NCBI GenBank assembly: GCA_052327205.1
Contig: CM126212.1
Span: 204,910,001-204,974,000, forward strand
Direction of reading: 5' to 3'
Source: Somniosus microcephalus
Taxonomy: Eukaryota
DNA length: 64,000 nt
Positions 1,091 through 42,479 of the stretch are shown one piece after another (positions within the stretch are counted from its first letter, which is position 1; each line of letters begins with the position of its first letter). The translations under genes were made by a program, and so were the position numbers. Below the pieces are notes generated by a model that saw nothing but the letters and a program-made list of their open reading frames with translations, searched no databases and was not told the origin of the DNA.

Positions 1091-1209
1091 GCTTACATCC
1101 TCATGGTTGGATCACTGTGGAGTTTCGCATTGTGTATTCAACATTTTCAGATCTAATGAAAGAGAAGGAACACTCCTTGTTTGAATATTTTGGCCAGAAT
1201 TTTCCCTAC

Positions 1210-1471
1210 TGTAATGATCAATAACATGTCATTCTATAGTGGACACTAGGTGGAGCCGTAGAGCTGTGTAGAGCTGTATATAAGACTACACTACCCAGCT
1301 GTATATATATTAAGACTACATTACCCATGAGGCACTAGGCTACCCACAAGGCAACAGTCAAGATGGAAGCCTCTACAGATACAGTACCCAGTCCACATGT
1401 GCTCAATAAAGTAACTAGCAAAAGCTAGCTGTGTTCATAATAAGAATGTCTATTTATTAATGAACATAACA
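1210..1471 (+). repeat. 5' LTR of Gypsy element 1
   Basis: TGTAA...AACA ends; direct repeat of 3523-3784; contains TATA-like tracts and AATAAA. Confidence 0.95.
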
Positions 1472-1485
1472 TGGTACCAGGGTGG
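1472..1485 (+). promoter_or_regulatory. Primer-binding site, probably tRNA-Leu(TAA)
   Basis: TGGTACCAGGGTGG immediately after the LTR; resembles the complement of the tRNA-Leu(TAA) 3' end (TGGTACCAGGAGTGG). Confidence 0.7.
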
Positions 1486-1516
1486 TGAAGATCTGCTGAA
1501 AATTGTGAAAAGCGAC

Positions 1517-3328
1517 ATGGAGAATTTGAAGCCACCAGAGCGTTTGAATCGCGAGGGAAATGTCGACTACAATTGGCGGATTTTTAAACAACAATTCGAA
1601 CTCTACATTGCAGCCATCGGATTCGGTACGAAGCCAGACACAAGGAAGATAGCATTGCTGCTTACGGTTGCAGGCCCACAGGTGATAGAGGTATTTAATA
1701 CATTTGTATTTAATCCAGAGGAGAAAAGAGAAAAATTAGAAGATGTGCTAAAATAATTTGATGCACATTGCTCTCCCAAAAAGAATGAGACCTATGAAAG
1801 ATACATCTTCTGTTCTCGGACACAGCAGCAAAATGAGACTCTTGATAGCTTTATAACAGATCTGAAACTGAAAGCACAGACATGTAATTTCTCTAGGCTC
1901 AAAGCATCCATGATTCGTGACCAGATTGTGTTTGGTATTCATGATAAAAAAGTCAGGGAACGTCTGTTGAGAGAAACCGAACTAAATTTGGAAAATGCGG
2001 TGAAAATATGCCAAGCCAGCGAGCTAGCTCGAAAGCACGCGAAGACTTTCAGTGAAATCAATAATGATGCGATTGTAATGAGTGATAATGCTGCTGTCGG
2101 TGCTGTGTCCTACAAGGGGAAGAAACGTGGGCAGAACAGAAATGAAAAGCAATCGGAGGATGACATTTTTAATTGTAAACGCTGTGGTTACAAACACCAG
2201 TTAAGACAATGCCCAGCATTTGGAAAAATGTGCACAAAGTGTAATGGAAAGAATCACTTTGCCAAACAATGCTTTTCAAAAGTAAAAACAACGAAAGGGC
2301 AACAAGTTAATGTGATTGAGGACACTGATTTAAGTGAGACATTTTTTGTAGGAATGGTGTCATGTGACAATATCAAAAAGGATACAGAAAATGTGCAGCC
2401 CTCAGAAATGGACAATGCTGAACATAAAGTTAATGCAGTAAAAGAGGACAAATGGATGATCCCACTGCAGGTAAATGGAGCATTAGTTACAATGAAACTG
2501 GACACTGGGGCAAAAGCAAACTTAATCAGTATGAGTGACATTAACAATATGAAAGAAAAGCCCAAAATACAGAAAAAGTCAGTACTACTGAAGGACTATA
2601 ATGGACAGAAAATAGATAGCTTAGGTGTATGCAGACTTAAAGTGACAGTCAAAGACAAAGTGCATCATCTCATGTTTTCTGTTGTGGCTGAAAGACTTGA
2701 TTCGATACTAGGTGACAAAGCTTGTGAAGACTTAGAACTGGTCAAGAGAGTCTACCGTATAAACTGTGCCATAAGCAGACCAGATGACTCAGGTGATGAA
2801 GCAGAGAGCCCATCAAGGATGAAAAGGCCAAAGGGTATCCATGTCTTCAAAAAGCCTAGTTTCTCCAAGAAGAAAGAAAAAGACTTTAAGGTCAAAGAGA
2901 AGCCAAAGGAAGAAAAGCACAAAGAGGAAAAACACAAGGAGAAAAAGTCCAAAGATATAACCGCAGCAGATGTTGTTAAGCAGTGGAAAGAGAAAAAGAA
3001 AAAGAAGAAGCCTGCACCAGAGCAGGAAGCAGTTCCGGTGGATACTCCTTCTTCCCTCAGGCCAATCTTTGGTGTTCCATTAGCCGAGGCTGCTGAGAGG
3101 ACTATGCTGTATGATGGGATCCAGCTGCCAGCAGTTTTTCGAGAGTGCATTGACTACATTGAGAGTTATGGCATGAAGAGTGAAGGAAACACTGAAACCC
3201 TCTCCAAGCAAAGATCGCAAGGAGACCTCGATCTATACAAGAGCAGATTGATGACAATGCCGCAACTGCATCTTGTAATTCACCGCCAGAACAATCTCAT
3301 GAAGACACATCAGACTTACCCGTGTTGA
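1517..3328 (+). pseudogene. Gag-zinc knuckle-aspartic protease::RALBP1 chimeric ORF with one in-frame stop (1754-1756)
   Basis: ATG 1517. ORFs 1460-1756 and 1910-3328 share a frame and are joined by the open sequence FDAHCSPKKNETYERYIF. Double knuckle (CKRCGYKH...C, CTKCNGKNHFAKQC), protease motif LDTGA, then the RALBP1 segment. Confidence 0.9.
2789..3187 (+). pseudogene. RALBP1: Captured RALBP1 (RLIP76) coding fragment: Lys-rich region plus start of the RhoGAP domain
   Basis: SGDEAESPSRMKRPKGIHVFKKPSFSKKKEKDFKVKEKPKEEKHK...TAADVVKQWKEKKKKKKP...IFGVPL...YDGIQLPAVFRECIDYIESYGMKSEG is collinear with vertebrate RALBP1 as I recall it. Confidence 0.92.
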
Positions 3329-3375
3329 GAAGATCCACACGTGAAGTAAAAAAGCCTGATAGACTTAATCTTTGA
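3196..3375 (+). pseudogene. Residual C-terminal tail of Gypsy pol, out of frame with the chimeric ORF
   Basis: Ends LRRSTREVKKPDRLNL*, the usual RxSxRxxKxPxRL integrase-tail motif (compare RKSSRHVKPPERLIEQI in element 2). Confidence 0.7.
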
Positions 3376-3522
3376 GTACAATATAAAGCTTTGAAAATGT
3401 GTTGACTGTTTTGAAAATGTTTATGTTTATAGAGCACTAACAAAAGTGTTACTGATATTATCTTTATTGTCTTCTTGAAAGTTGATTGATATTGATTTTG
3501 TTAAAACTCAAAGAAAGGGGGA

Positions 3523-3784
3523 TGTAACGATCAATAACATGTCATTCTATAGTGGACATTAGGTGGAGCCGTAGAGCTGTGTAGAGCAGTATATAAGACT
3601 ACACTACCCAGCTGTATATATATTAAGACTACATTACCCATGAGGCACTAGGCTACCCACAAGGCAACAGTCAAGATGGAAGCCTCTACAGATACAGTAC
3701 CCAGTCCACATGTGCTCAATAAAGTAACTAGCAAAAGCTAGCTGTGTTCATAATAAGAATGTCTATTTATTAATGAACATAAGA
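3523..3784 (+). repeat. 3' LTR of Gypsy element 1
   Basis: Preceded by the polypurine tract aaagaaaggggga (3510-3522). Ends ...AAGA (terminal CA mutated), followed by the TSD. Confidence 0.95.
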
Positions 3785-4007
3785 CCTACCTGGGTGGGTC
3801 CGGTGCCATGGTGGGTTGTGACCCTGTTGCTGGCACCATCCTGCTCCACAGAACGACTTTACGTTAATAGGGCCTATTAAACCCTACCTACGCGTTAACC
3901 TGTCCAATTAAATGCTGCGGGCCTGGTGACGTCATTTATGACGCGTTTTCAGCCAGGATCTTTAAAGGGGCCATGGCCACATTACATTTGGAGTTTAATC
4001 TAACCTA

Positions 4008-5383
4008 GTGCTGTCAGTGCACTACAGCATTGGAGTGCTGCAAACACTGATGCTTATGGAGGGAGTCAGAGCATGCAGAGAGGTCCTCTTCCCTTCCAAT
4101 GGGCAGAAGAGACCTCCCCAGGAGACTAAAACAGCCTGTTTGGAGATTGCAGAGGAGGTCACCAGCAGTGATGTGGTTAGGAGGTGGTTGCAGTGCTGCA
4201 AATGTTTCAATGCTCTCATTAGATCAGGAAAGGTGAGCACAAAGCCACACTCAGCTTCATTCTGCTGTGCCTCTCATCACATCCCCATCATTCTGCCTTC
4301 CCAACCTTACTCCTGCACATCCTTACTCACACCAAAATACCTTGCATGTCCCCCCATCCCTGTCTCTCTATCTACATTATCACATCCCCATCTCACTAGC
4401 TACCCCTCACACTCACCCTCATCCTACTGCAATCATACCAACTAACAACACACAAGGAGGCCACTTGGCTTTGGCATCCCACTCCATCTAAAGATTTAGC
4501 CCATCCATTCCTTAGACTCACTCAACCTTCTCTTCTTTCCCCCCTTGCAGGAAAAGAGAGCCCACAATAAGAGGGAGAAGGGGAGAACCGGCGGTGGCCC
4601 TCCATCATTTGCAAACCCTACAACAGCAGAGGAGGCTGCTTTACAAATATCTGGAGTCACCGAGCAGCTGGAGGTGGGAGACGGAGAGAGGGGGACATCT
4701 CAGCAACCTGATGACAAAATTACATCTCATACAGCCACACGGCATACATCAGCCACTCATATGGGGACTGACTGATGTCAGCAGCCAGTGAATGGTTATC
4801 ATGTGCATAATGGTATCTGTACCCATTCTTCATATGACATATCTAACTCATCTCTTTACTCTCCCACAGGTCTATCAAGATGCACCCCCCCAACTGTCCA
4901 GGAGGAAGAAGAAGATGAGGACCCTCCAGCCTCTGAGGGTGGACCATCACCAGACGTAAGCGCACCCAGCACCAGTGCAGAAACGCACACCTGGATGGGT
5001 CCCACACAAGATAGAGTAGTGTTGTCACCTGGTGTCTCACGACTCACAAGTGAGCAAGAGCAGATGGTGGAGACAGGGACAGCAGTGGAGAGACCTCACC
5101 GGAGGGCGCAGATGCTGAGCCTCGGGGGCCATCCAGAAAGAGGGCAATCCTGGAGGTGCAGCAAGAAGTGCACAGGGCTCTGACAGGTTTTGCGAGTGCC
5201 ATGTCTGCAAATGTTCAGAGAATGGAGGAGTCCATCTCCAACTTGAGCAGCACTGTGTTGCAGGCGATGGTGACTGCAGGCTCTTCCATGGATAGGATGG
5301 CCACCTACATGGGGCAGCTAATGTACCACTCACAGCAGCACATGGTCTCTATGGAGAATAGATGGCTATCTATGGAGGATTGA
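4008..5383 (+). pseudogene. Harbinger Myb/SANT-like DNA-binding gene (spliced, decayed)
   Basis: LMEGVRACREVLFP...WLQCCKCFNALIRSGK|gtgag; next exon after ttgcag EKRAHNKREKGRTGGGPP; further acceptor ccacag near 4869; Met-rich coiled-coil C-terminus. Confidence 0.7.
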
Positions 5384-6302
5384 TGGCTATCTATGGAGAA
5401 TAGATGGCAGAGGCTCATAGACCTCCTCTCTAGGAGGGATGTCAGCGTAGACGTGGGTCCTCATGGCCCCACTGATGTGCAGCAAGGTGCTCTCCAGCTC
5501 CTTGGCAGCAGGGAAGTGAGTAGGCTGCCTCTACCTCTGCTGAAGCCACAGAGTTAGCACCTCATGGAAGTACGTGGAAGAGAAAGTTGACACACAAGTA
5601 GATTCATAAGGGTAGCCACTTGGGTGTTTTATTCAATGTTTATGTAAAGTTTCCGTTAATGTGCTGTCAAACATAAAAATCTTTATTTTCAACACTTTCT
5701 GGTCTTGGACAGATTTGTGTACACATTTGGAAGTGGCTTAGTGAGTTGCAGTGAATGGTGAGACATAATGGAATCTCTAGCAATGGTGATGAGTGTGAAA
5801 GGAATGGCTTGGTCATTGTAGGGAAGCTTTATGGTGTTGGTGTGGGGTGGTGCCAACCTGGCGCATCATGTGGCAGCCATATGAGTGTACAGCATCAAGT
5901 TAAGTAAATCTAGCCATGATGAGGCTATCCTGGGCCGCAATGTGCTCGGGTGCTGATGCTGTGTCCTGTGTAGCATCAGGTGATTGTGGAGAAGGATGGT
6001 GGTATTGTTGTTGGTGCTGCTGGTGTGTCCAGTGCTGCTGGTGTTGGGGCTCATCGTGGTGAGATTCTGAGGACCAAGGTGAAATAGTATAAACGGCACC
6101 CATGCTGATGGAATAGACGGCAGGTGAAGTAGAGCTGACAGAAGCAACCTGTCAATGGTGAGAGAGTTCTTCCATTGAGGTGACACTGGATGGAGACTTT
6201 GCTGGATAGACTTGCAGCCTACAGAATCTATGCTGGGAATGCAGTGAGCAACAGCTTCTGCCTGAGGAAGGTGATCAGCTGTCAGGTGGGAGCTTTTATA
6301 GT

Positions 6303-8037
6303 ACATAGAAACATAGAAGATAGGAGCAGGAATAGGCCATTCGGCCCTTCGAGCCTGCTCCGCCATTCAATGTGATCATGGCTGATCATCCAAATTCAGT
6401 ACCCTGTCCCTGCCTTTTCCCCATATCCCTTGATCCCTTTAGCCTTAAGAAATATATCCAACTCTTTCTTGAATATATTTAATGAACTAGCCTCCACCGC
6501 CCTCTGTGGCAGAGAATTCCACAGGTTCACCACTCTCTGGGTGAAGAAATTCCTCCTCATTTCAGCCCTAAATGGCTTACCCCTTATCCTTAGACTATGA
6601 CCCCTGGTTCTGGACTCCCCGGCCATCAGAAACATCCTTCCTGCATCTAGTCTGTCCAGACCTGACAGAATTTTACAGGTTCCGATGAGATCCCCTCTCA
6701 ATCTTCTAAACTCCAGTGAGTATAAGCCCAATCGACACAATCTCTCCTCATACGTCATTCCTGCCATCCCAGGTATCAGCCTGGTGAATCTTCGCTGCAC
6801 TCCCTCCATGGCAAGAACGTCCTTCCTCAGGTAAGGTGACCAAAACTGCACACAATACTCAAGGTGCGGTCTCATCAAGGCCCTGTACAACTGTAGCAAG
6901 ACATCCTTGTTCCTGTACTCGAACCCTCTTGCTACGAAGGCCAACATACCATTTGCCTTCTTAACCGCCTGCTGCACCTGCATGCTTACCTTCAGCGACT
7001 GGTGCACAAGGACACCCAGGTCTCTTTGCACTTCCCCTTCTCCCAATCTATTGCCATTCAAATAATAATCTGCCTTCCTGTTTTTGCCACCAAAGTGGAT
7101 AACCTCACATTTATCCACATTATAGTGCATTTGCCATGTTTCTGCCCAATCACCCAACCTGTCCAAATCGTACTGGAGTTTCCCGACATCCTCCTCGCAG
7201 CTTACCCTCCCGCCCAGCTTTGTGTCGTCTGCAAATTTGGAGATATTACATCCAATTCCCTCGTCCAGATCATTAATATATATTGTGAACAGCTGGGGTC
7301 CTAGGACCGATCCTTGCGGTACCCCACTAGTCACTGCCTGCCACTCGGAAAACGACCCGTTTATTCCAACTCTTTGCTTTCTGTCCGCCAACCAGTTCTC
7401 TATCCAAGTCAATACCTTGCCCCCAATCCCATGTTCCTTAATTTTGCATGCTAATCTCTTATGTGGGACCTTATTGAAAGCCTTCTGAAAGTCCAAATAC
7501 ACCACATCCACTGGTTCTCCCTTATCTATTTTACCAGTTACATCCTCAAAAAATTCCAGTAGATTAGTCAAGCATGATTTACCTTTTGTAAATCCATGTT
7601 GACTTTGTCCGATCCTGTCACTGCTTTCCAAGTGCTCTGCTATTACATCTTTTATAATAGACTCTAGCATTTTCCCCACTACCGATGTCAGGCTTACCGG
7701 TCTATAATTCCCCGCTTTTTCTCTACCACCTTTTTTGAATAGTGGGGTAACATTAGCTACCCTCCAATCCATGGGTACCGTTCCAGAGTCTATCGAGTTC
7801 TGGAAGATGACCAGTAATGCATCTACTATCTCTAGGGCCACTTCCTTAAGTACCCTGGGATGTAGACCATCAGGCCCTGGGGATTTATCGGCCTTCAGTC
7901 CCATCAATTTTCCTAACACCATTTTCCTACAAATACTGATTTCTTTCAGTTCCTCTCTTTCATCAGACCCTATGTTCCCCGGCATCTCTGGGAGGTTATT
8001 TGTGTCCTCCTTTGTGAAGACAGAACCAAAGTATGTA
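6303..8037 (-). mobile_element. CR1 LINE, 5'-truncated, RT ORF open (6396-7985)
   Basis: GVPQGSVLGP and FADD RT motifs; (tttctatg)n tail; near-identical to 38463-40196. Confidence 0.95.
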
Positions 8038-8539
8038 TGCTGTCAAGTAATCAGCTGGAGCAATGGCCACTCAACTCCCGCTTCAGGTTGACAGACGTGG
8101 TGAGCTGCATGAATCCCATGGCCATGCTGGGAAATTTGAAATGTGGGGGGCGGGGTTGGGGGTGGGGAGTGAAAGGCTCTTAATTGTCTGGAAACAAGAT
8201 TATAATGATTTGAATTAAGTCGCCTCTGCCGGTCGGGTCGCTGTTACACTGGCAAACATGCCTAAGGGAAAGGCACGTGGGGGCGAGATGACGGCGGCTT
8301 CCTGACCCGCTCCCGCTTTTTTCAAATGTCCCACCCGACCCGCCACCATTCCCACCCGCACGGACCCCAGAAACTCCCGGCCTTTGTATCCATTTTTTAT
8401 TTGTTTGAAATTCTGAATTTGCTCTGCTCGGCTAATGCTTCTTAAGTTTTTGCTGTGTTACCAATATTTGTTGCTTAATATTTAAGATGACAGTTTTACA
8501 CTTTTCATAAAAGGAAACCCCAAATGAACAATATCTTAC

Positions 8540-16200: not shown

Positions 16201-17205
16201 ATGGTTCTTTTATAGAAATGCATAATATCCAGATTTATAATTGAATAGCTCAGAAACTGGTGATACTTAGTGGAGAACAAAAGTGACAGTTTACTGCTTA
16301 GAGCACTCACCACATTAAAATAAAGTAAAATATTTAATTTTTCATTGATGGAGTGATGGCCATGTTTCTAACAAAATACTGCAGCAAATATAGGTTTAGC
16401 CAATGAGGGGTTTCAAAATTGTGTTTTACTTTTTTCTATAATATTTAAAACATCCCTCTTGTCTTACATACAAGTATTATTGATGAAGAAGATAAAAACT
16501 GCTATATAGATTTTCTTTAGGAGGGGGTTGTTTGAATATAAAACTGCTTGAGCTTTTGGTTAACTTTCCTTATTTCTTTTTCTATGGATCACTGAAGTTG
16601 AAGTTGGGACACGTCAGTCTAGTCAAGCCTGTAAAATTGGATACACAGTTGAAACACTGCTTTCCAGGACATGTCTTCAGTAGATGAGCTTTGCAGTTAT
16701 ACATCTGGAACTTTGCATTGCAAATGAGCAATATGGATAGGATAAATGCCAGCAGTGTTCTTGCTTCAGTGCTCTGTATCCTGTGGACTGTAGTGTGTTT
16801 GGCCAAAGCAAGTGCAGGGATACATTTTCACATTTATAGCTTAGAGCAGTGCATGCTGGGACCCCATATCGGATATTGGGTGTGGACGATTGTGCACCCA
16901 TTGTACAGCCAACCTGATTTTCTGTCCATTTAAATGTGTGTGCAATTCTCCATGCCCAATATTGCAGTAGGAGTTCTCAGTGTGTGCTCCTCTGCACTGG
17001 GAACACAAATGTACCTTCATATATCCTACAGTGATGGTAATCATATTTTACCAGTTTTCCGGGCCCAGGAAGTTTAAATAGACTGGAGCTTCCACATTGT
17101 TCACATCACAAGGGACTTCCTGGATGGCAGTGGACATGGATGATACATTGGTGATTGGTGCAGCTTGAGGGTCAAAGGGTGGTGATTGCAGTGGGAGTGG
17201 CAAGG

Positions 17206-18498
17206 CAGCACTGGGGGGAGCAGCACTGGTGGTAGCAGCACTAGGGGGAGCAGCACTGGTGGTTGCAGCACTGGGGGGAGCAGCACTGGTGGTAGCAGCA
17301 CTGGGGGGAGCAGCACTGGTGGTAGCAGCACTGGGGGGAGCAGCACTGGGGGGAGCATCACTGATGGTAGCAGCACTGGGGGGAGCAGCACTGGTGGTAG
17401 CAGCACTAGGGGGAGCAGCACTGGTGGTTGCAGCACTGGGGGGAGCAGCACTGGTGGTAGCAGCACTGGTGGTAGCAGCACTGGGGGGAGCAGCACTGGG
17501 GGGAGCAGCACTGGTGGTAGCAGCACTGGGGGGAGCAGCACTGGGGGGAGCAGCACTGGTGGTAGCAGCACTGGGGGGAGCAGCACTGATGCTAGCAGCA
17601 CTGTGGGGAGCAGCACTGGGGGGGAGCAGCACTGGTGGTAGCAGCACTGGGGGGAGCAGCACTGGGGGGAGCAGCACTGGGGGGAGCAGCACTGATGGTA
17701 GCAGCACTGGTGCTAGCAGCACTGGGGGGAGCAGCACTGGTGGTTGCAGCACTGGGGGGAGCAGCACCGGGGGGAGCAGCACTGGGGGGAGCAGCACTGG
17801 TGGTAGCAGCACTGGGGGGAGCAGCACTGGGGGGGAGCAGCACTGGTGCTAGCAGCACTGGGGGGAGCAGCACTGGGGGGAGCAGCACTGGTGGTAGCTG
17901 CACTGGGGGGAGCAGCACTGGTGGTAGCAGCACTGGGGGGAGCAGCAGTGGTGGTAGCAGCACTGGGGGGAGCAGCACTGGTGGTAGCAGCACTGGGGGG
18001 AGCAGCAGTGGTGGTAGCAGCACTGGGGGGAGCTGCACTGGGGGGAGCAGCACTGGTGGTAGCAGCACGGGGGGAGCAGCAGTGGTGGTAGCAGCACTGG
18101 GGGGAGCAGCAGTGGTGGTAGCAGCACTGGGGGGAGCTGCACTGGGGGGAGCAGCACTGGGGGGAGCAGCAGTGGTGGTAGCAGCACTGGGGGGAGCAGT
18201 ACTGGGGGGAGCAGCAGTGGGAGGAGCAGCACTGGGGGGAGCAGCAGTGGTGGTAGCAGCACTGGGGGGAGCTGCACTGGGGGGAGCAGCACTGGGGGGA
18301 GCAGCAGTGGTGGTAGCAGCACTGGTGGGAGCAGCACTGGGGGGAGCAGCACTGGGAGGAGCAGCACTGGGGGGAGCAGCAGTGGGAGGAGCAGCACTGG
18401 GGGGAGCAGCAGTAGGAGGAGCAGCACTGGTGGTAGCAGCACTGGGGGGAGCAGCACTGGTGATAGCAGCACTGGTGGTAGCAGCACTGGGGGTAGCA
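17206..18498. repeat. 15-bp minisatellite, about 1.3 kb
   Basis: Interspersed units gggggagcagcactg and gtggtagcagcactg. Confidence 0.97.
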
Positions 18499-18590
18499 GA
18501 GATGTCATCAAAGGCAGCAAAAGGAGAAAGTGGTGTTGGAGCTGGTCAGGGAGTAGCAGACAATGGTGAGAAGAGGATCAAAAAGGTATA

Positions 18591-20692
18591 GGCCGGGAAA
18601 TTGGAGGCATTAGCGCCGGCCATTAAGGCAAGTTTGGAAGAAAAAATGGTGGCCGCCTCACTTCTGCCCGCTTTTGGGCAGGTCAGCAGTGTTACCGTTG
18701 CCTGCGCTCACTTCCCATATTTAAATGATCCAGATCGTGATGTCAATCAGCAAGCAACACCTGAACTGACGCACGTTGCCACTCTTAATAACACCCTCTC
18801 CAAACCACGCATGGAAGAATGTGGATGCAGCAGTAGAACGGAACTGCTGCCATCGCTCCTTAAAGGAATACACACTACTTTCAAGTAAGTTTAGATTTTT
18901 GCTTTTGGACTGGTTTCTTTACATTTTGTTGGAGTAGCGGCTTGGTGTAATACATTTAAAAAGTTGCTAGTGTGAAGGGGATGCGGGGAGTGCTGCTGGA
19001 CTCCAAGAACACCGCTTGCTCACAGTCCTGGGGGCTCTAGTTACAGTCCCCACATCAAGATGGAGCAGAGGCAGCAAAGGGGACAAGCTGCTCGCAGAGG
19101 GAGGAGGAAGAGGAGGAAGCAGAAGAGGAGGAAGCAGAAGAGGAAAAAGCAGAAGAGGAGGAAGCAGAAGGAAGGAGACAACCCAGACAGCCCCTTTCTG
19201 ACCGGGATATCTGGGATCGAATCATCTGCCTGCACTAGCAGTGACCACAACCCCAATTCCCCTTTAAACATTTGTCCCACACCTTATCTTCCCTCTGTTA
19301 CTGACCATCACAGCATCTTCTTGGTCACAATGCTGAAATAAAAGCTACCACAAAGCAAACTTTCCAATCCAACTTTATCCATATATGCATCCAATATTAC
19401 ATCACAAAAAATCAATGAATCACCCTTGTGCATTCCCTTAGTGACTGTCTTACGTGTGCCTTTGCCTATCCTAGTGATGTTACGCAGTGCTACCCCAGTG
19501 GCTACAGCATGGCTGGTGGAAGGTTGCTGACTTTCAATGGGGGACACTGCAAATGGCCTTGCAGGATGCCCTCGAGGAGCTGGTGGCTGGGAGTGTGAAA
19601 TCAAGTGACGGTGTTTCTTCTTCTTTTTCTTCTTCTTCTTCACTCTCCTTCTTGGTCAACCACTGACTGGGCAGGCTGGATTTCTTGTGTGTCTGAAATG
19701 AGGAAGGCAGAAGGGCAGGGTTGTGGTGAGGGGAGGGGAGAAAAGCAAGAGGTGCATGCTTACACCATGTGCAGCTTGTAAATCAGAAAATATTGTGGGA
19801 TGAGGGGGTAGTGGGATGTGAGAAGGAGGATAACATATGAGGCTACCCGCATCTTGTATTCTTTCAGCCCCGCTGCTGGCCAAGGGCCCAGCCATACCCA
19901 TGCCAAGAATGGCCAGCACCGTCTCCTCCAAGGGAGTGAGGTGAAACTATGAATGTGAGGTGTGCCTTTTTATTGTTAGAGATTGTTGGTAGGTGAGTGA
20001 TGGGGGTGGGGGTCGTGCATTGAGCAGTGTGTGAGGCTAGTGGTGCAGTTGGTAGGAGATGGCTTTTGAAGATGCATTCACTGACCTTGACCACTCGTCT
20101 GAGGTCATGAAACTTCTTTGGGCACTGGAGCCAGGTCCTGGGGGTGACACTGCTGGCAGTGACTATCTCGGCAATCTGGTCCCCTTCTTTCTGGAGGGCC
20201 TTCTGGCCCCTTGTGGGTAGAGGACCTCTCTTCCAGTGTTGACCCCCTGCACAAAGCTCGAGTGCTGCATCCGAGATCCTGGGTGCTCTTTCCCTGGCCT
20301 GTTTAGCCATTTGAGTTAGTGCTGAAGCACTTTTAGCCTTTTTGATCAGCAGAAGGCAACTCATCTTTAAGAGGTGCGGACTGCCTAGTGCCGAAGCAAT
20401 TTAATTTTTTTTAGCTGCAGCCTGCAGCTCAGCTTTAGAGCTGCAGACTGCCTTGAAGAGGAGCAGGCTAGCTTTAGGTAAGGCTAGCCTCGCTCCAGCA
20501 GCGCAAACTTTGGCACGCTGCTGTGCGCACAGCCTGTCAGCAGTGCTTTCAGTGCTAGGCTGTGCGCTACAATCATGGTAATTAGCAGGCAGCACGAAGT
20601 TGACACGGTGCCTGCCCTTTTTGAATGGGTACGGGCATATCTCACATCGTGGTGCCCTCGCCCATTTTCCAGCGGTATCAAATTTCCTGGCC
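18591..20692. mobile_element. PIF/Harbinger-derived element
   Basis: TIRs ggccgggaaatt / aatttcctggcc. Minus-strand Myb/SANT-like remnant (MAKQARERAPRISDAALE...RTWLQCPKKFHDLRRVVK|gtcagt). Confidence 0.75.
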
Positions 20693-32451: not shown

Positions 32452-35400
32452 TGTAATGATATCAGCAAATAGTGATGATATTTGTCTGTGTTTGATTACT
32501 TATGCCATACAGCATATTTGTCTGTGTTTTTGATTACTTGTGCCTGACCAGCAGAGGTCATGTGAGAGACAAGCAGTCCAGAGGAGTTTTACTTTCAGTT
32601 TCATTCTAGCTGCATCACAGCATGGTGTGTTCTGTAAAAAGCTGTAGAAAGTCTTGAACAAGACTTTAGATTAAACAACATTCTCTTTCAGAAATGAGTC
32701 TTTATTGAACCCAAAAAGAAATCAAAACATGATGTCAGAAGTGGCTGAAAGAGAAAAAATCTGAAGTTAGCAACTTGATGGGACAGTGAAAGCAGTTGTG
32801 GCAAGTAAGCGAAATCAGCTCTCCACATATTAGCAAGCCAGAAGAGAACATCGTTGCTTACCATTAGAGAATAGCTAACGAAGTGAAAAAATGGAAGGTT
32901 TACTCCCACCGGCGACGCTTCAATTGACAGGTAATGTGGCTGAAAATTGGAGGAGATTCAAACAACGTGTAGGGTTGTATTTATCAGCAATCGGAGCTGA
33001 CGATAAAAGTAATAAACAGAAATCGTCACTGTTCTTACATGTCGTGGGTGATGCAGCGCTGGAGGTATATAATAATTTCATATTCGCTGTTGATGGAGAC
33101 AAAATGAAGCTAGATAAAATAATGGAACAGTTTGAGGCCTACTGCATACCTAAACGCAACGTGACCTTTGAGAGGCACAAATTTTTCACATGTGTACAGA
33201 AAATCGGCGAGACTATTGATCAGTATGTGACTGAACTGAGAAACCGAAGCAAATCGTGTGAATTTGGGGGACTGACAGACTCGCTGATAAAAGACAGACT
33301 GGTGTGTGGTATTCCAGATAATGGTCTAAGGGAAAGACTGCTAAGAGAGCAAGATCTAGACCTGGGAAAAGCCATAGCACTGTGTAGGGTTACAGAGACT
33401 GTGAAGTTGCAGGCAAAGGAGCTGTTCAGTGACAGTAGCTGCAACGTGGATGCAGTGAGAAAGAATGGATACAAACCGTTTAACAAAAAGAGCGCCAATG
33501 TGATAAAAGAGACGTGGCCAGCAAACGAAAATGAAAGGGACAATCGGAAGTCATGTAGTCGATGCGATACACAGCATCCACCAAGAAAGTGTCCAGCATA
33601 TGGTAAAACTTGCTATAGTTGCAACAAAAACAACCATTATGCCCGTTGCTGTAAGAACCAAGCGCAACAAAGCAAGGTCCATACAGTAGATGAAAGCGAG
33701 ATAGAGGAATTCAATGTAGATGTTGTGTCTGAAAACAAAAAAGAAAGAGACTGGATGTTGACACTAAAAGTGAACAACATACACATTCCATTTAAATTGG
33801 ATACTGGAGCACAAGTTAATGTGATATCAGAGACCGATTTTAAGAGAATTAGACCCAGACCAAAGTTACATGGAAAACAAGTGAAAGTGACCGGATACTC
33901 AGGTACTGATATACCAGTGAAAGGAAAATGCATTGTCAAAGTAACACACAAGGACAGAGAGCACACGCTAGCATTAATCGTGGTGCCAAAGGATGTGCAA
34001 GCCATACTAGGTTTAAAAGCCTGTGAGAGACTGAACCTGGTAAAGAGAGTCCTCATTGTGGAAAGCGAAGGAGAGACAGTCTATGATGAACTGAATGTTG
34101 CGTACACACCGGGTAAGCTGATGTATACAGCAGACACGTTGTCCAGAGCTGTTGACCCAAGTGAGCCTGCAAACACCACAATGGATGAAAAAGTGAACGC
34201 CTACGTGGACATGATCACAAGTGCACTGCCCATAGCAGATGCAAAAATGGAGCTCATAAAGACTGAGACAAACAAAGATGAAACAATGAGACGACTGAGA
34301 AAAAGCATCTTGGATGGATGGCCCAACATGAAGCAAGACTGCTCACCTGATATAGCAGAGTACTGGAACTGCAGGGCGGAACTATCAGTGGTCGAAGACA
34401 TCATCTACAAAGGAAGTAAAATAGTTATCCCAAAGAGTCTGAGAAGAGAGATGCTAAAAAAGATCCATGGAGGACATCTGGGAATCGAAAAGTGTAAGAA
34501 AAGAGCACGAGAGGTGATGTACTGGCCACGAATCAACCAAGATGTGACAAATGAGGTGTCAAACTGCACAATATGCCTGAAATATCGAGCAAGCAATCCG
34601 GTAGAACCACTAAAGCCACACCCAGCACCAGACAGACCTTACCAGAAGGTAGGCGCTGACCTATTCGTATGTCAAGGGAAGGACTATCTTGTCGTCACAG
34701 ACTATTACTCCCTGTATCCAGAGGTTTGTAGACTGTACACCACCACTGCAGAAGCTGTGATAAGAAGTATGAAAGCCATATTCTCCAGACATGGCGTGGC
34801 AAGCGAGGTCTTCACAGACAACGGACCCCAGTTTAACAATGCAAATTTCCGACACTTTGCCAAAGAGTGGGACTTTGTCCACACAACGTCAAGTCCTCAC
34901 TATCCACAGTCCAATGGACTAGTGGAAAAATCGGTCCAGACAGTGAAAAGACTGATGCACAAGGCAAAAGACAGTGGAACTGACTTCTACCAAAGCATGC
35001 TTGTATACCACACAACGCCGCTCGAGTGTGGTATGTCACCAGCCCAACTCCTAATGGGACGTCGGCTAAGGTCAAACCTACCCATCCCGGAGAACCTCCT
35101 GAAAACAAAAGAGGGGGAGAAAGTGAGGAAGTTCAAAGAGCAACAGAAAGAAAAGCAAAAGTACTACTATGACAGAGGAACACAAAACCTACCTGAACTC
35201 CACACTGGTGACCAAGTAAGGTTGAAAGACAAAACAAACACATGGGCTCAGAAGGGAACTGTCCTGAGTGAAGTTCAACCAAGATCATACACCATTCAGA
35301 CAGATGAGGGTGCTGTTCTGAGAAGAAATCGTCGAGATCTTCTCATGGGACCAGCCACAGCAGGTCAAGAGACTGAAACTGGTGAACAACCTGATCACAC

Positions 35401-35964
35401 AGCTGAGAACCAATCATCTGAGGCAACAACTCAGATTCAAGGACAATCAATCAGAAAATCCTCAAGACACGTGAAGCCTCCTGAGAGACTCATTGAGCAA
35501 ATTTAAGGACTATTGTTAAAGAAGGAAGTAATGTTATCTTATTCTTTCTTCAAGTTCTAGTGTATTGACATATTTCATGTGAACACACAAAGCAAGGGTA
35601 AAAAACCTTGATCATGATAATGATAATGTAAGTTCATTAAATGTTGTTAGTTAAAAGTAAAATACTTTTGTTTTAAGAAAGGGAGATGTAATGATATCAG
35701 CAAATAGTGATGATATTTGTCTGTGTTTGATTACTTATGCCTTACAGCATATTTGTCTGTGTTTTTGATTACTTGTGCCTGACCAGCAGAGGTCATGTGA
35801 GAGACAAGCAGTCCAGAGGAGTTTTACTTTCAGTTTCATTCTAGCTGCATCACAGCATGGTGTGTTCTGTAAAAAGCTGTAGAAAGTCTTGAACAAGACT
35901 TTAGATTAAACAACATTCTCTTTCAGAAATGAGTCTTTATTGAACCCAAAAAGAAATCAAAACA
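32452..35964 (+). mobile_element. Gypsy LTR retrotransposon lacking RT and RNase H
   Basis: 278-bp LTRs 32452-32729 and 35687-35964 (1 mismatch by eye, TG...CA), TSD GGTTG, PBS tgatgtcagaagtgg (tRNA-Leu(CAA)-like with a G>A change), PPT aagaaagggaga. Confidence 0.96.
32891..35506 (+). CDS. Gag-protease-integrase polyprotein, 871 aa, no RT or RNase H
   Basis: Gag, double zinc knuckle, LDTGA protease, then directly YTPGKLMYTADTLSR (end of RNase H), HHCC, catalytic core (ADLF...TDNGPQF...NGLVEK) and C-terminal PRSY domain. Confidence 0.9.
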   Translation: MEGLLPPATLQLTGNVAENWRRFKQRVGLYLSAIGADDKSNKQKSSLFLHVVGDAALEVYNNFIFAVDGDKMKLDKIMEQFEAYCIPKRNVTFERHKFFTCVQKIGETIDQYVTELRNRSKSCEFGGLTDSLIKDRLVCGIPDNGLRERLLREQDLDLGKAIALCRVTETVKLQAKELFSDSSCNVDAVRKNGYKPFNKKSANVIKETWPANENERDNRKSCSRCDTQHPPRKCPAYGKTCYSCNKNNHYARCCKNQAQQSKVHTVDESEIEEFNVDVVSENKKERDWMLTLKVNNIHIPFKLDTGAQVNVISETDFKRIRPRPKLHGKQVKVTGYSGTDIPVKGKCIVKVTHKDREHTLALIVVPKDVQAILGLKACERLNLVKRVLIVESEGETVYDELNVAYTPGKLMYTADTLSRAVDPSEPANTTMDEKVNAYVDMITSALPIADAKMELIKTETNKDETMRRLRKSILDGWPNMKQDCSPDIAEYWNCRAELSVVEDIIYKGSKIVIPKSLRREMLKKIHGGHLGIEKCKKRAREVMYWPRINQDVTNEVSNCTICLKYRASNPVEPLKPHPAPDRPYQKVGADLFVCQGKDYLVVTDYYSLYPEVCRLYTTTAEAVIRSMKAIFSRHGVASEVFTDNGPQFNNANFRHFAKEWDFVHTTSSPHYPQSNGLVEKSVQTVKRLMHKAKDSGTDFYQSMLVYHTTPLECGMSPAQLLMGRRLRSNLPIPENLLKTKEGEKVRKFKEQQKEKQKYYYDRGTQNLPELHTGDQVRLKDKTNTWAQKGTVLSEVQPRSYTIQTDEGAVLRRNRRDLLMGPATAGQETETGEQPDHTAENQSSEATTQIQGQSIRKSSRHVKPPERLIEQI

Positions 35965-38554
35965 GGTTGTTCCCTCTTACTGGGTGCCTGCTAGGTGTGG
36001 TGTGTCTGATAGACTTAGAGAAGGGGAAAGGGTCAAGTGCACATGGTGGCAAGGGTAAGCAGCAGCAGATGAATGCCAGTGCAATGCACCACCAAGTTGT
36101 CATGCCGAGTGTGTGAGTGAGAGAGTTAAGTAGAAAGAAAAGCAAGGGAAGATAACCAAACAGCTGCTGTAAGTGGCCTCCAAGCTGGCCATCTCCAATG
36201 ATGCATGCCCTCTCTCTGCCAATGACATCAATGGCGGCCTCTTCCACTGGTGTCAGGATATGTATTGAAACAGGACCTCCTTTTGTCTTTGTGCTCTCCC
36301 CTCTGTTGTGTGCCCAGCTTCTCCTGCAAGAAGAGTGTAGTCTGTACCTTGTTGAAGGGTTTGGAAGACGTCTGAGGCAGCTTAGCATTGTGTGCATGAT
36401 GAGCTGAAGAAGCAGCAAGTGTGTCAAAGAGGGTGAAGTCATTGTGAGGGCAGTAGCAGGTTTTGAGAGTCTGACTGCAAGCAGAAGGAGGTGCAGTGAT
36501 CGGAGGAGAGGCATGGATTGATAGTGGTGGGACTAAATGATAATAATAACAAAACAGCAACAAAAAAAAACCTATTACATATATATAGCGCTTTTAACTT
36601 AGGAAAATGTTCCAAGGATTTTCCGAAAAGTGTAATCAGACAAAAATTGACATCGAGCTGTGGTAGGAAATATTAGGAGGGGTGCTGCAGGGCTGTACAG
36701 AGCCTAAGAGATGTGAAGGGGAGTCTTACCTTGGCAGCCCTGCTGATTTCCTTATTTCTTTTTCCTGCACTGCGGCCAGGTCCTGGAAGCAAAGCTGCTG
36801 GCATTGATTTGCTCTGCTATCTCTCTCCATTGCTGGGAGAAACTTGACTGGGTGCCCGTCGCCCATGGGAGGGAGAGAGAGCCTCCAATCTGCTGCATCA
36901 GAGAATCTGATGGCCCTGCCTGCTGCTTTAGAAAATTGTTTTTCATTGTCCCCCATTGAAGGAACACCTTCCCTTAAGGAGCTACAGGCTGCCTTTAAGT
37001 TGTGGCCGTCCCACCAGATTTCCTGCCCTCCTAATCTGCAAGCTGCCTATAGGAATTACAATTAGCAGTGGCAGCTCGCACATTCCACCAAAAATTGGCC
37101 ACCAAAATGACACAGACCCTCAGCCGACTGTATTGGGCGGGTGGAATGGGCCCACGGCCGACCAATCTACGCCAGGCATGAAATTCGGCCTCATTAAGTG
37201 AAACGTAAGCTCTTCAGTAGAAACTGCATTGCAATATATGACGACGATATATTTTTGCAAAAGTAATGGCGTAGATTTTCATCTCTCCTGCCTGGGCAGA
37301 GCACAATGAGTTTAATTGGCTGGGGAGGATCGTATAGCTGTAACAGAGCACGCTCAATTTTCCTTTTGTTATGGAAGGAAAATTGAATGGGTTCCATTAC
37401 GGGCGTGTGTTCGTCCCTGCCCAATATTCCTCTCTGTGTTCGCCAAGGCAATGCTTTACGCGAGGCAGTAAAGATGGAAGTCAAAGACTCATGTGAACTT
37501 GTACATTATGAATGTGGAATGAGGCAAAACCATGCCAAGAATAAATGATGTGACATTTGTGGTTAGGGAGCTGGTGATTTATTGTAATATAATTACAGTT
37601 TATGAGCAATAATGAAACAGACATTTGAAATTTTTAAATATTCTATAATTCCTAGATGTTGCCTCTGCTTTGGTGTCATTATGTGTGGAGAAATAGCCAT
37701 AATTTAGCCCTTCATGCACTTGCTATGAAACTGTTCCATTTCAATGCCCTGTCTCTTGACTTGCTTCTCTATCCAGTAATAAAACTTTGATAAAATAACC
37801 TATTAACAATACTTACCTGACACAATAATGCGAGATAGCTGACAAAATATTCACAAACATAATTAATCACTGCCTTCCTGGTGCAGATATTTCACGAACT
37901 AGCTTTTGAGACAACAACAAGCTTAAGGGACCACTATTTCAACAAGACCTCTGTGAAGCTTCAGGAGAACACCTCTTTAATTTTGTTTTATCACCGTGAA
38001 ACCAGTATTAAATCATACCTTCATCATTGCCCACCGATATCGGTGCGACTCATCCTGGTCTACTCACCTGACAATTTAGTGTAGTTTCCATGACAACCCT
38101 TCTACAATGTTGAAAACATGCTGTGAAGTGTTTTTTTCACTCTTCACATGCAAACTCACTCTTTTCAGAATGCCAAATTACCATCTATTGCGGGTGAGAC
38201 TGCAGTGTTCTAGTTTTGCCTAAAATTATCTTTAATACCAGATTTTCTTAGTGATTTCAAAAATTGAAATGGAAGCAGCAAGCATATAAAAAGGGTTTTT
38301 TCACAGAGCCTAAGGAACGAGAACAGCCTGCTTCAAAAATCTCATATGTATCCTGTATATTTGATTGCTACGTAAAATTATACTGAAGCAAATATTATAT
38401 AGGCTGCAGCACAAACTTATGCATTCTAGTTTCACTGTTTCTATATTCAGTTCCATTGAAGTCATAGAAACATAGAAGATAGGAGCAGTAGTAGGCCATT
38501 CGGCCCTTCGAGCCTGCTCCGCCATTCAATGAGATCATGGCTGATCATCCAAAT

Positions 38555-41413
38555 TCAGTACCCTGTCCCTGCCTTCTCCCCATATCCCTTGATCCCTTTA
38601 GCCTCAAGAAATATATCCAACTCTTTCTTGAATATATTTAATGAACTGGCCTCCACCGCCCTCTGTGGCAGAGAATTCCACAGGTTCACCACTCTCTGGG
38701 TGAAGAAATTCCTCCTCATTTCAGTCCTAAATGGCTTACCCGTTATCCTTAGACTATGACCCCTGGTTCTGGACTCCCCAGCCATCAGAAACATCCTTCC
38801 TGCATCTAATCTGTCCAGACCTGACAGAATTTTATAGGTTTCGATGAGATCCCCTCTCAATCTTCTAAACGCCAGTGAGTATAAGCCCAATCGACACAAT
38901 CTCTCCTCATACGTCATTCCTGCCATCCCAGGTATCAGCCTGGTGAATCTTCGCTGCACTCCCTCCATGGCAAGAACGTCCTTCCTCAGGTAAGGTGACC
39001 AAAACTGCACACAATACTCAAGGTGTGGTCTCACCAAGGCCCTGTACAAATGTAGCAAGACATCCTTGTTCCTGTACTCGAACCCTCTTGCTACGAAGGC
39101 CAACATGCCATTTGCCTTCTTAACCGCCTGCTGCACCTGCATGCTTACCTTCAGCGACTGGTGCACAAGAACACCCAGGTCTCTTTGCACTTCCCCTTCT
39201 CCCAATCTATTGCCATTCAAATAATAATCTGCCTTCCTGTTTTTGCCACCAAAGTGGATAACCTCACATTTATCCACATTATAGTGCATTTGCCATGTTT
39301 CTGCCCAATCACCCAACCTGTTCAAATCGTACTGGAGTTTCACGATATCCTCCTCACAGCTTACCCTCCCACCCAGCTTTGTGTCATCTGCAAATTTGGA
39401 GATATTACATCCAATTCCCTCGTCCAGATCATTAATATATATTGTGAACAGCTGGGGTCCTAGGACCGATCCTTGCGGTACCCCACTAGTCACTGCCTGC
39501 CACTCGGAAAACGACCCGTTTATTCCAACTCTTTGCTTTCTGTCCGCCAACCAGTTCTCTATCCAAGTCAATACCTTGCCCCCAATCCCATGTGCCTTAA
39601 TTTTGCATGCTAATCTCTTATGTGGGACCTTATCGAAAGCCTTCTGAAAGTCCAAATACACCACATCCACTGGTTCTCCCTTATCTATTTTACCAGTTAC
39701 ATCCTCAAAAAATCCAGTAGATTAGTCAAGCACGATTTACCTTTTGTAAATCCATGTTGACTTTGTCCGATCCTGTCACTGCTTTCCAAGTGCTCTGCTA
39801 TTACATCTTTTATAACAGACTCGAGCATTTTCCCCACTACCGATGTCAGGCTTACCGGTCTATAATTCCCCGCTCTTTCTCTACCACCTTTTTTGAATAG
39901 TGGGGTAATATTAGCTACCCGCCAATCCATGGGTACCGTTCCAGAGTCTATCGAGTTCTGGAAGATCACCAGCAATGCATCTACTATCTCTAGGGCCACT
40001 TCCTTAAGTACCCTGGGATGTAGACCATTAGGCCCTGGGGATTTATCAGCCTTCAGTCCCATCAATTTTCCTAACACCATTTCCCTACAAATACTGATTT
40101 CTTTCAGTTCCTCCCTTTCATCAAACCCTATGTTCCCCGGCATCTCTGGGAGGTTATTTGTGTCCTCCTTTGTGAAGACAGAACCGAAGTATGTATTTAG
40201 TTGGTCTGCCATTTCCTTGTTTCCCATTATAAATTCCCCTGATTCTGACTAAGGGAGCTACGCTTGACTTCACCAATCTTTTTCTCTTCACATATCTATA
40301 AAAGCTTTTACAGTCAGTTTTTATGTTCCCTGCTAGCTTACTCTCATATTTTATTTTCCCTTTCTTAATTAATCCCTTTGTCCTCCTTTGTTGACTCCTA
40401 AACTGCTCCCAATCCTCAGGATTATTGCTTTTTCTAGCCAATTTATATGTCCTCTCCTTGGATCTTATGCTATCCCTAATTTCCCTTGTTAGCCACGGTT
40501 GAGTCACCTTTTTTGTTTTATTTTTATGCCAAACTGGGATGAACAAATTTTGTAGCTCATCCATTCGGTCTTTGAATGTTTGCCATTGCCTATCCACCGT
40601 CAACCCTTTGAGTGCCATTCCCCAATCAATCCTACCCAACTCGCTCCTCAGACTATCGTGGTTTCCTTTATTTAAATTGAGGACCCTTGTCTCTGAGTCA
40701 ACTACTTCATTCTCCATCTTAATGAAGAATTCGATCATATTATGATCGCTCTGACGCAAGGGGCCTCGTACAACAAGATTGCTAATTAATCCTTTCTCGT
40801 TACATAATACCCAGTCTAAGATGGCCTGATCTCTGGTTGGTTCCTCGACATATTGGTCCAGGAAACCATCCCGTAAACACTCCAGGAATTCCTCCTCCAC
40901 AGTATTGTTACTAATTTGGTTGGCCCAATCTATATGTAGATTAAAGTCACCCATGATGACTACTGTGCCCTTATTGCACCCTTCTTTAATTTCCCTTTTA
41001 ATGCCATCCCCAACCTCCGCCTTACTGTTTGGAGGTCTATATACCACTCCCACTAATGTTTTTTTCCCCTTGGTATTTCTCAATTCTACCCATACAGATT
41101 CCACATCATCAGAGCTAATATCCTTCATTACAATTGTATTAATCCCTTCTTTAACCAGTAATGCTACCCTACCTCCCTTTCCTTTTTGCCTATCTTTCCT
41201 GAATACCGAATACCCCTGGATGTTGAGTTCCCAGTCTTGGCCATCCTTGAGCCACGTTTCCGTAATCCCAACCAAATCATATTCGTTTACCTCTATTTGC
41301 ACAGCCAATTCATCCACCTTATTACAAATGCTCCTCGCATTAAGACACAAAGCCTTCAGGCTTGTTTTTTTAACGCTCTTAGACCTATTAGAATTATTAT
41401 TTACTGTGGCCAC
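38555..41413 (-). pseudogene. CR1 ORF2 (APE endonuclease-RT), frameshifted near 40250 and 39712
   Basis: NARS, ITETW, GDFN, SDH endonuclease motifs; FADD RT motif; split into three ORFs. Confidence 0.92.
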
Positions 41414-41535
41414 ATTTGATTTAAACCGTTGATTTCTCTGACTGCCACTTTTGTTTTTCTCCTTCCTATCTTTTGCTTTTATCCCTGTTTTCCTTTCCTC
41501 TGTCTCCCTGCTCAGGTTCCCAACCCCCTGCCATT

Positions 41536-42465: not shown

Positions 42466-42479
42466 GGGCAGGGCGTATA

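Follow-up and report, generated by a model that had tools for sequence, protein, structure and literature searches.

Here we report a computational analysis of a chimeric long terminal repeat (LTR) retroelement of the Gypsy type, which lies at positions 1210-3784 of a 64,000-nucleotide (nt) stretch of the Somniosus microcephalus genome (assembly GCA_052327205.1, contig CM126212.1, positions 204,910,001 to 204,974,000 of the forward strand; hereafter, the window). Most of the pol region of this element is replaced by two exonic pieces of the cellular gene RALBP1, the first of them fused in frame behind the gag and protease (PR) regions. An earlier reading of the window, made from the sequence alone, had proposed the in-frame RALBP1 capture, with the first piece only, and compared the architecture with that of transforming retroviruses. 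We identified the donor gene and the autonomous parent family, counted and sampled the chimeric copies in the genome, and analysed selection on the fused frame and its transcription in raw RNA runs.

Structure of the chimeric element

The element carries the full set of cis-acting features that the sequence-only reading had listed and that characterize Gypsy LTR elements in general, namely two 262-nt LTRs with exactly 4 mismatches between them, a CCTAC target-site duplication (TSD) of the expected 4-6 bp size class at both flanks, a primer-binding site (PBS) pairing with a transfer RNA (tRNA), and a polypurine tract (PPT) (Table 1). The reading frame 1757-3328, in which the aspartyl protease occupies residues 235-319, continues into the RALBP1 insert without a break, as had been read, and ends at a chimeric stop codon at 3326-3328. 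Only one of the three joins, junction 1, is in frame, piece 2 and the integrase (IN) tail being read in other frames. In the window copy the gag frame is closed by a stop codon, so that no Gag-PR-RALBP1 fusion can be made from the ATG at 1517 in that copy. The proposed loss of reverse transcriptase (RT), RNase H, and most of integrase was confirmed by comparison with the parent: ~2.5 kb of parental pol, encoding RT, RNase H, and the zinc finger and core of integrase, are exchanged for ~0.45 kb of RALBP1. As in LTR-mediated retrocopies, the internal open reading frame is replaced, not interrupted, by host exonic sequence.

Table 1. Features of the chimeric element in the window, with example loci of the second LTR family.
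Feature	Position	Strand	Basis or remark
5' target-site duplication, CCTAC	1205..1209	+	LTR comparison
5' LTR, 262 nt, TG...CA	1210..1471	+	LTR comparison
PBS, 10 nt pairing with the tRNA-Leu(TAA) 3' end	1472..1481	+	genome's own tRNA plus CCA
gag, two Cys/His knuckle-like motifs near its end, premature stop 1754-1756	1517..2458	+	
Aspartyl protease domain, DTG at 2501-2509	2459..2713	+	PF13975, E=8.8e-07
Junction 1, CTCAG, 5-nt microhomology, in frame	2788..2792	+	2,791 genomic copies
RALBP1 piece 1, most of the second coding exon, residues 93-230	2788..3186	+	399 nt
Junction 2, GTGAAGG, 7-nt microhomology, second coding exon to last exon	3180..3186	+	2,802 genomic copies
RALBP1 piece 2, 55 nt from the last exon, out of frame	3180..3234	+	100% host identity
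Parental element resumes (2-nt exact microhomology): out-of-frame integrase tail, 3' untranslated part, PPT	3233..3522	+	
Polypurine tract	3510..3522	+	read from sequence
3' LTR, 262 nt, TG...GA	3523..3784	+	LTR comparison
3' target-site duplication, CCTAC	3785..3789	+	LTR comparison
Second LTR family, examples	G000 C10:164.738-164.741 Mb; C7:228.572-228.576 Mb; C10:81.149-81.152 Mb		

Relatives of the gag-PR part are teleost Gypsy gag-pol proteins named K02A2.6-like (top matches 57-75% identical), and none of the 120 matches listed of 142 contains a RhoGAP or RALBP1 domain. The family may belong to the Mag-like clade. Two types of LTR end, ...AACA and ...AAGA, are found in the family, each in both chimeras and parents, and the window copy (1470-1471, 3783-3784) is the sole one of 38 complete elements listed to combine a CA end in its 5' LTR with a GA end in its 3' LTR.

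Captured RALBP1 sequence and donor gene

The identity of the insert as RALBP1, initially recognised from the translation, was established by its match to PDB 2mbg (E=4.6e-19), by its best protein matches, which among the 120 listed of 363 are RALBP1 of skate, sawfish, catshark, and whale shark with 86-89% identity, and by its match to a host exon at G000 C7:32331455-32331042. No gag or protease domain occurs in these 120 listed proteins. An alignment of 414 columns with the host exon shows 5 substitutions and a single 15-nt gap, piece 1 being one 15-nt repeat unit shorter. Piece 2 is identical to the host at 55/55 positions and corresponds to the 55 nt that lead up to the completed stop codon. 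The host gene comprises nine coding exons on the minus strand (C7:32333446 to 32292493), and a search with the Ral-binding domain profile gave one match among 51 candidates scored, on C7. Thus, the donor is a single host gene.

At junction 1, the CTCAG motif is present in the host exon and in one of two parental alleles, and at junction 2, GTGAAGG occurs in both RALBP1 exons. The three microhomologies of 5, 7, and 2 nt, of which the last is within chance expectation, support template switching, suggested earlier as the likely origin, and are of the kind found at the joins of LTR-mediated retrocopies, for which the median microsimilarity is 6 nt (Tan et al. 2016, PMC5131818).

The captured stretch covers RALBP1 residues 93-230 (whale-shark numbering), that is, a basic disordered region and the first ~20 of 144 positions of the RhoGAP profile. 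In the whale-shark protein, this profile begins with residue 211, the arginine occupies position 233, and residues 399-446 form the Ral-binding domain. The insert ends three residues short of the arginine equivalent to the human Arg232 finger and does not include the Ral-binding domain; therefore, it cannot be a GTPase-activating protein (GAP) or a Ral effector. A binding role for the captured peptide may be considered, as the human protein, RLIP76, with its arginine finger at Arg232, has a basic N-terminal third that is predicted to be disordered and has AP2, ARNO, Epsin, and R-Ras as binding partners (PMC8124665).

On the strand of RALBP1 itself, one chimeric copy (C7:32357713-32361072) precedes the first coding exon of the gene by ~24-27 kb. 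The chance of any chimeric copy falling within 26 kb of the gene, computed after the fact, is ~1-2%. With its standard junctions and disablements of its own, this copy does not look like a founder.

Family size and separate insertions

Copies were counted genome-wide with 30-nt patterns allowing at most one mismatch, so that all such counts are lower bounds. Junction 1 gave 2,791 matches and junction 2 gave 2,802, with 0 for the reversed controls, and the parental protease/RT join gave 6,040 matches. The chimera accordingly makes up ~32% of a Gypsy family of ~9,000 copies by junction counts, which bears out the suggestion that a Gag-PR-RALBP1 family exists. In a protein search of the genome with the insert, 150/150 scored candidates, out of 9,143, were matches.

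For a closer view of individual loci, we used 60 loci on C1 (the first 60 exact junction-2 matches of the 2,802) and 30 more picked by insert identity. All of the 60 loci sampled by position belong to the chimeric Gypsy family. Both element ends were in view at 48 of them, where the TSD is an exact 5-bp repeat in 41 cases (39 distinct; 3 after a 1-nt shift), has one mismatch in 5, and is absent in 2; different TSDs at different copies had been anticipated for a family that moved. The two LTRs of a copy diverge by 1.5% on average in 35 chimeric copies, from 0/266 to 12/264, a mean that omits the window copy, the two copies whose TSDs do not match, and copies with LTR ends missed by the motifs. 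A frame of at least 595 codons is retained in 7/60 chimeric copies, and 5/50 frame-covering copies show no disablement in the alignment. Two copies, at C1:67.20 and 68.40 Mb, have the same flanks and haplotype and are probably a segmental duplication rather than two insertions.

The possibility that the chimera is an assembly artefact or a dead one-off capture, for which the gag stop in the window copy might speak, is refuted by the ~2,800 genomic copies of each junction with their differing TSDs, by RNA depth that carries on over the joins, and by runs labelled as a second organism that contain up to 0.90 of the junction-region words; the misassembly or single copy that had been considered as grounds for rejecting the reading can thus be excluded. 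The PPT pattern yielded 6,615 matches, fewer than chimera plus parent, and is uninformative for other large derivative classes. Among 8 PPT loci inspected, 5 contain parental pol, 3 are interrupted, nested, or off target, and none carries another capture.

Parent family and movement in trans

The autonomous parent that the sequence-only reading had called for was found among the ~6,040 protease/RT joins. Parent copies are ~4.65 kb long and have the same LTRs as the chimera (~2.6 kb), and some retain an uninterrupted gag-pol frame. In one of them, a single frame of 1,332 codons encodes PR (336-419), RT (522-677), RNase H (743-874), and IN (980-1136). A Pfam scan revealed no env domain in the parent, and the length of 4.65 kb leaves no room for one. 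The chimera, which has no RT or integrase, occurs at many separate insertions, and shares its LTRs with this autonomous family, is a non-autonomous derivative that would therefore be copied in trans, in agreement with the helper dependence proposed for it.

Contact between the two classes is visible in their alleles, compared with a parent sample of 33 loci (20 chosen by position and 13 by LTR likeness). At positions that separate most chimeras from parents, 12-13 of 57-58 chimeras have the parent-type allele at 2369-2500, 10-12/57 at 2704-2705, and 2/57 at 2728, which is 60 nt from junction 1. Further upstream of these sites the chimera haplotypes are mosaic. This gradient fits recombination with helpers and supports co-packaging with helper RNA; recurrent mutation could account for single sites but not for linked runs.

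RNA capture and a second mosaic LTR family

The two RALBP1 pieces are both exonic and in sense orientation, and they lie 38.5 kb apart in the gene but only ~1,240 nt apart in the coding sequence. Being close only in the messenger RNA (mRNA), they favour capture from RNA. Further information came from a genome pattern search for the exon running past junction 2, which was found in the host gene and at 8 other loci. These 8 loci belong to a second LTR family without likeness to the chimeric Gypsy family. In the chimeric family, the pieces are joined at microhomologies rather than at splice sites, and it is only in this second family that exact RALBP1 splice joins are found, between exons 2 and 3 at 6/8 loci and between exons 3 and 4 at 4/8. 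The spliced RALBP1 of the second family implies that RALBP1 mRNA has been captured by LTR elements in this germline.

The second family is non-autonomous, with LTRs of ~500-850 nt (TG...CA) and a short gag-like start followed by a mosaic of host mRNA pieces. Its RALBP1 sequence, present in 7-9 copies, adjoins pieces of other genes, and the partners vary by copy; Pfam matches identify PGK and a gene with a VWA domain among them. Other partners are presumably Tudor-domain, DCUN1D, PRPF6, and UBR7-like genes and a tRNA-Ala fragment, and we take the PBS to resemble tRNA-Ala. The family is possibly an exon-shuffling vehicle.

The two capturing families have 4 differences from the present host exon in common, and each also has private changes. 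These common differences raise the possibility that the Gypsy element obtained RALBP1 second-hand, from RNA of the mosaic family, an account that concerns the origin only and is compatible with any reading of the subsequent spread. We consider such a transfer quite unlikely. Each family has one private substitution and a different repeat deletion, the mosaic copies examined are without the last-exon piece, whose upstream context is host-only, and one of the common sites is ancestral in other cartilaginous fish, that is, the host changed there. Separate captures followed by host change provide a simpler scenario than transfer between families. At one position of the host exon (G000 C7:32331031-32331455), the host encodes Leu, in contrast to the Ile (GIQLP) of the two capturing families and of four other cartilaginous fish, the result of either a host change after capture or a polymorphism.

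Selection on the fused frame

Non-CpG variants in gag-PR were classified as nonsynonymous (N) or synonymous (S) and compared between frequency classes. Among parents, variants found in at least 3 of 33 copies are 47N:43S and singletons are 198N:54S (p=5e-6); the helper gag-PR is under purifying selection. The corresponding comparison for chimera-private gag-PR variants gave 17N:5S in at least 3 copies vs 235N:82S for singletons (p=1.0). Within the insert, variants in at least 2 copies are 16N:6S and the others are 79N:28S (p=1.0), so that purifying selection was undetected by a test of low power. We also considered whether disabled lineages had been amplified and rejected this idea, given that the common stops and frameshifts are mostly at CpG or homopolymer sites and come without linked rare alleles.

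In acutely transforming retroviruses, host coding sequence sits in frame behind gag, replaces pol, and depends on a helper for propagation. The likeness of the chimera to such gag-onc fusions holds for the layout and is not supported for the function. If it extended to function, a Gag-PR-RALBP1 protein, or a basic peptide released from it by the protease, would act on host signalling or particle assembly and be selected. The in-frame junction 1, the entire frame in 7/60 copies, the sense transcripts, and the binding partners of the basic N-terminal region of human RALBP1 (PMC8124665) are in keeping with this idea, which we nevertheless hold to be highly improbable. The catalytic arginine and the Ral-binding domain are missing, the N:S ratios are neutral in the insert and in the chimera-private gag-PR, one frame-keeping join among three is what chance alone would give, the window copy has a gag stop, and env is absent with no sign of infectious spread. 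The chimera further differs from gag-onc retroviruses in that it has spread in the germline rather than by transformation. Overall, it belongs to the class of LTR-mediated retrocopies and is gag-onc-like in layout only.

Transcription of the chimeric family

Expression was assessed by mapping two raw RNA runs from one study, X23 and X24, on positions 1472-3522; they bear the organism label of the best-matching data set. In X23, depth is ~370 before junction 1 and 325 after it, with 76 loose ends leading into parental RT, and 93% of the insert depth comes from first mates on the minus strand, which corresponds to the sense RNA strand under the usual stranded protocol. The reads continue over junction 1, showing the sense co-transcription that is typical of LTR-mediated retrocopies (Tan et al. 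2016). Neither a loose end of host type nor the 15-nt insertion of the host exon was seen among the rows shown for X23 (194 loose ends lie beyond them), and we infer that its insert reads, which seem to be mostly chimeric, do not stem mainly from the host gene. In X24, depth falls from 663 to 213 over junction 1, a drop equal to the ratio of copies in the genome, and reads come from both strands. The family is therefore transcribed, and any per-copy excess over the helper is sample-dependent and may rest on a few loci.

Two features of X23 were recorded alongside: RNA depth is 5- to 8-fold lower over gag 1748-1954, with no joint listed, a drop that is not present in X24, and a variant with a 48-nt duplication of 2850-2897 occurs in 8 reads. 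A few loci may dominate the expression in this run. Runs labelled as other organisms also contain sequence matching the family. Three runs of organism B (X2, X4, and X8) hold 0.79-0.90 of the junction-region words, and for organism C (X10) the summed contig depth is 1,360-7,400 over the insert and ~30,000 over gag, with no join-bridging contig listed. The family is probably older than the split of at least two labelled organisms. A junction-1 contig of depth 4.6 in X11 (organism D) was set aside as probable contamination, as two sister runs of the same sample contain no such words.

Origin and spread of the chimera

We propose that a Gypsy element was packaged together with RALBP1 RNA, and that reverse transcriptase would have switched template at a short microhomology from the element, just after the protease, to the second RALBP1 coding exon. 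A further step inside RALBP1, taken during that round or through a later deletion, would have reached the last exon, and a return to the element near the end of integrase would have given a product that kept both LTRs, the PBS, the PPT, and gag-PR and lost RT, RNase H, and the integrase core. This short non-autonomous product could then have been copied in trans by the autonomous family, recombining with helper RNA, and have spread to ~2,800 loci. Under this scenario, with RNA rather than DNA as the captured template, RALBP1 would be a neutral passenger on a short and well-transcribed non-autonomous element, a reading to which we assign a probability of roughly 0.7. The spread would be accounted for by its short length, its intact cis signals, and its strong transcription.

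Several observations weigh against this scenario. Piece 1 lies inside one exon, and the chimeric family consequently offers no spliced join that would prove an mRNA template. An undeleted intermediate with the LTRs of the chimeric family was not found, the last-exon context upstream of junction 2 being host-only. No plain deletion derivative of equal abundance was seen among 20 + 8 sampled parent-type loci. Junction-1 reads in X23 are apparently mostly from the chimera, which represents ~32% of copies, and some expression advantage of the chimera is possible. With 22 and 22 informative changes, the power of the selection tests is low, and the comparison of chimera-private with parent-shared gag-PR variants reached only p=0.053. 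Finally, none of the stops and frameshifts among 90 copies is inherited by descent, as selection for an open frame would give; by our estimate ~2 inherited disablements are expected, and the zero observed is not significant.

Some of these observations would fit a different explanation, in which the captured exon is itself the reason for success and the cause of the ~2,800 copies of this one derivative, by shielding the element from Piwi-interacting (piRNA) or small interfering RNA (siRNA) as a camouflage in cis, by providing exonic signals for RNA export or stability, or by offering a long frame that avoids decay, so that the chimera out-expresses its helper per copy. It draws on the share of the chimera in the junction counts, where it makes up about a third of the family, on the lack of a comparable plain deletion class in the sampled loci, on the nearly even and 93% sense-strand depth over junction 1 in X23, on the zero disabling mutations inherited by descent, and on the 4 sites that distinguish the host exon from the two capturing families, with a host-lineage change at one or more of them. 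Such an advantage at the RNA level is possible but in our opinion unlikely. The depth ratio in X24 is that of the genomic copies, with both strands read, and the signal in X23 may come from a few strongly expressed loci; the rate of fixed differences is similar in host exons 2 and 4 (1/151 and 1/39 sites); the second family holds RALBP1 in only 7-9 copies; and in maize, captured fragments gave no rise in copy number (bioRxiv 10.1101/777037). The maize study also describes a model by which captured exons could moderate silencing. If the explanation were true, silencing of the element would risk silencing RALBP1, as ~2,800 near-identical exon copies face a single-copy gene, and the chimeric and mosaic families together would represent LTR-driven capture and shuffling of host mRNA on a large scale in this genome. 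Passenger status on a short non-autonomous element remains our preferred reading.

Relation to known gene captures

The mechanism is already known from LTR-mediated retrocopies and from maize Bs1, and it is the copy number that is unusual. The sequence-only reading had stated that gene capture is rarely shown for vertebrate Gypsy elements, and this needs softening, for Tan et al. (2016, PMC5131818) describe LTR-mediated retrocopies from four vertebrates, namely zebrafish, chicken, mouse, and human. In the retrocopies of Tan et al., as in the chimera, a partial mRNA replaces part of an open reading frame, the joins show microsimilarity, template switches are multiple, the captured piece is co-transcribed in sense, fusions are often in frame, and secondary retroposition is non-autonomous (PMC5131818). 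They differ in having few insertions (18 sites for nine Drosophila retrocopies, vs ~2,800 copies here), and, unlike them, the chimera constitutes a third of its family and shows an allele gradient fitting continued recombination with a helper.

Maize Bs1 is likewise non-autonomous; fragments of host mRNAs, only part of them in frame, take the place of its pol region, and the switch points are common to all copies (PMC5131818, PMC13317346). Bs1 is present in 1-5 copies and has three donor genes (PMC5131818, PMC13317346), whereas the family reported here has one donor and ~2,800 copies in a vertebrate, with no protein constraint detected; the second mosaic family is closer in build to Bs1. Bat Helitrons are also vertebrate transposons that amplify host fragments, with about a thousand copies of the NUBPL 5' region and 12,382 in total (PMC4224331). 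In contrast to the chimera, they are rolling-circle DNA elements that carry mostly promoter and 5' fragments with introns, and they involve neither RT switching nor a gag-PR fusion (PMC4224331). An earlier description of the chimeric family was not found in the literature, repeat libraries and most subscription journals having been outside the search.

In the chimera, the RNAs of helper and passenger show copy-choice recombination in a vertebrate on the scale of a population. Donor gene, helpers, and recombinants coexist in one genome and form a matched control with the same LTRs and a similar age for the question that the family opens, whether captured host sequence protects a transposon from silencing and at what cost to the donor gene. 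In practical terms, ~2,800 copies that are 98% identical to a RALBP1 exon will distort RNA sequencing quantification and annotation of this gene in these species.

Other features of the window and genome

The window contains another Gypsy element at 32452-35970, with 284-nt LTRs that are 98.9% alike and an 875-codon frame with gag, protease, and integrase. It has no Pfam match to RT or RNase H, owing to an in-frame internal deletion, and shows ~40-50% protein identity to the parent of the chimera. The stretches 5866-8042, 38555-42540, and 17048-18591 contain long frames that seem to resemble the reverse transcriptase and endonuclease of long interspersed nuclear elements (LINEs) of the CR1 type, and a GC-rich tandem repeat. 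Elsewhere in the genome, a long array of tRNA genes at G000 C4:0.72-1.92 Mb includes dozens of ends of the tRNA-Leu(TAA) type.

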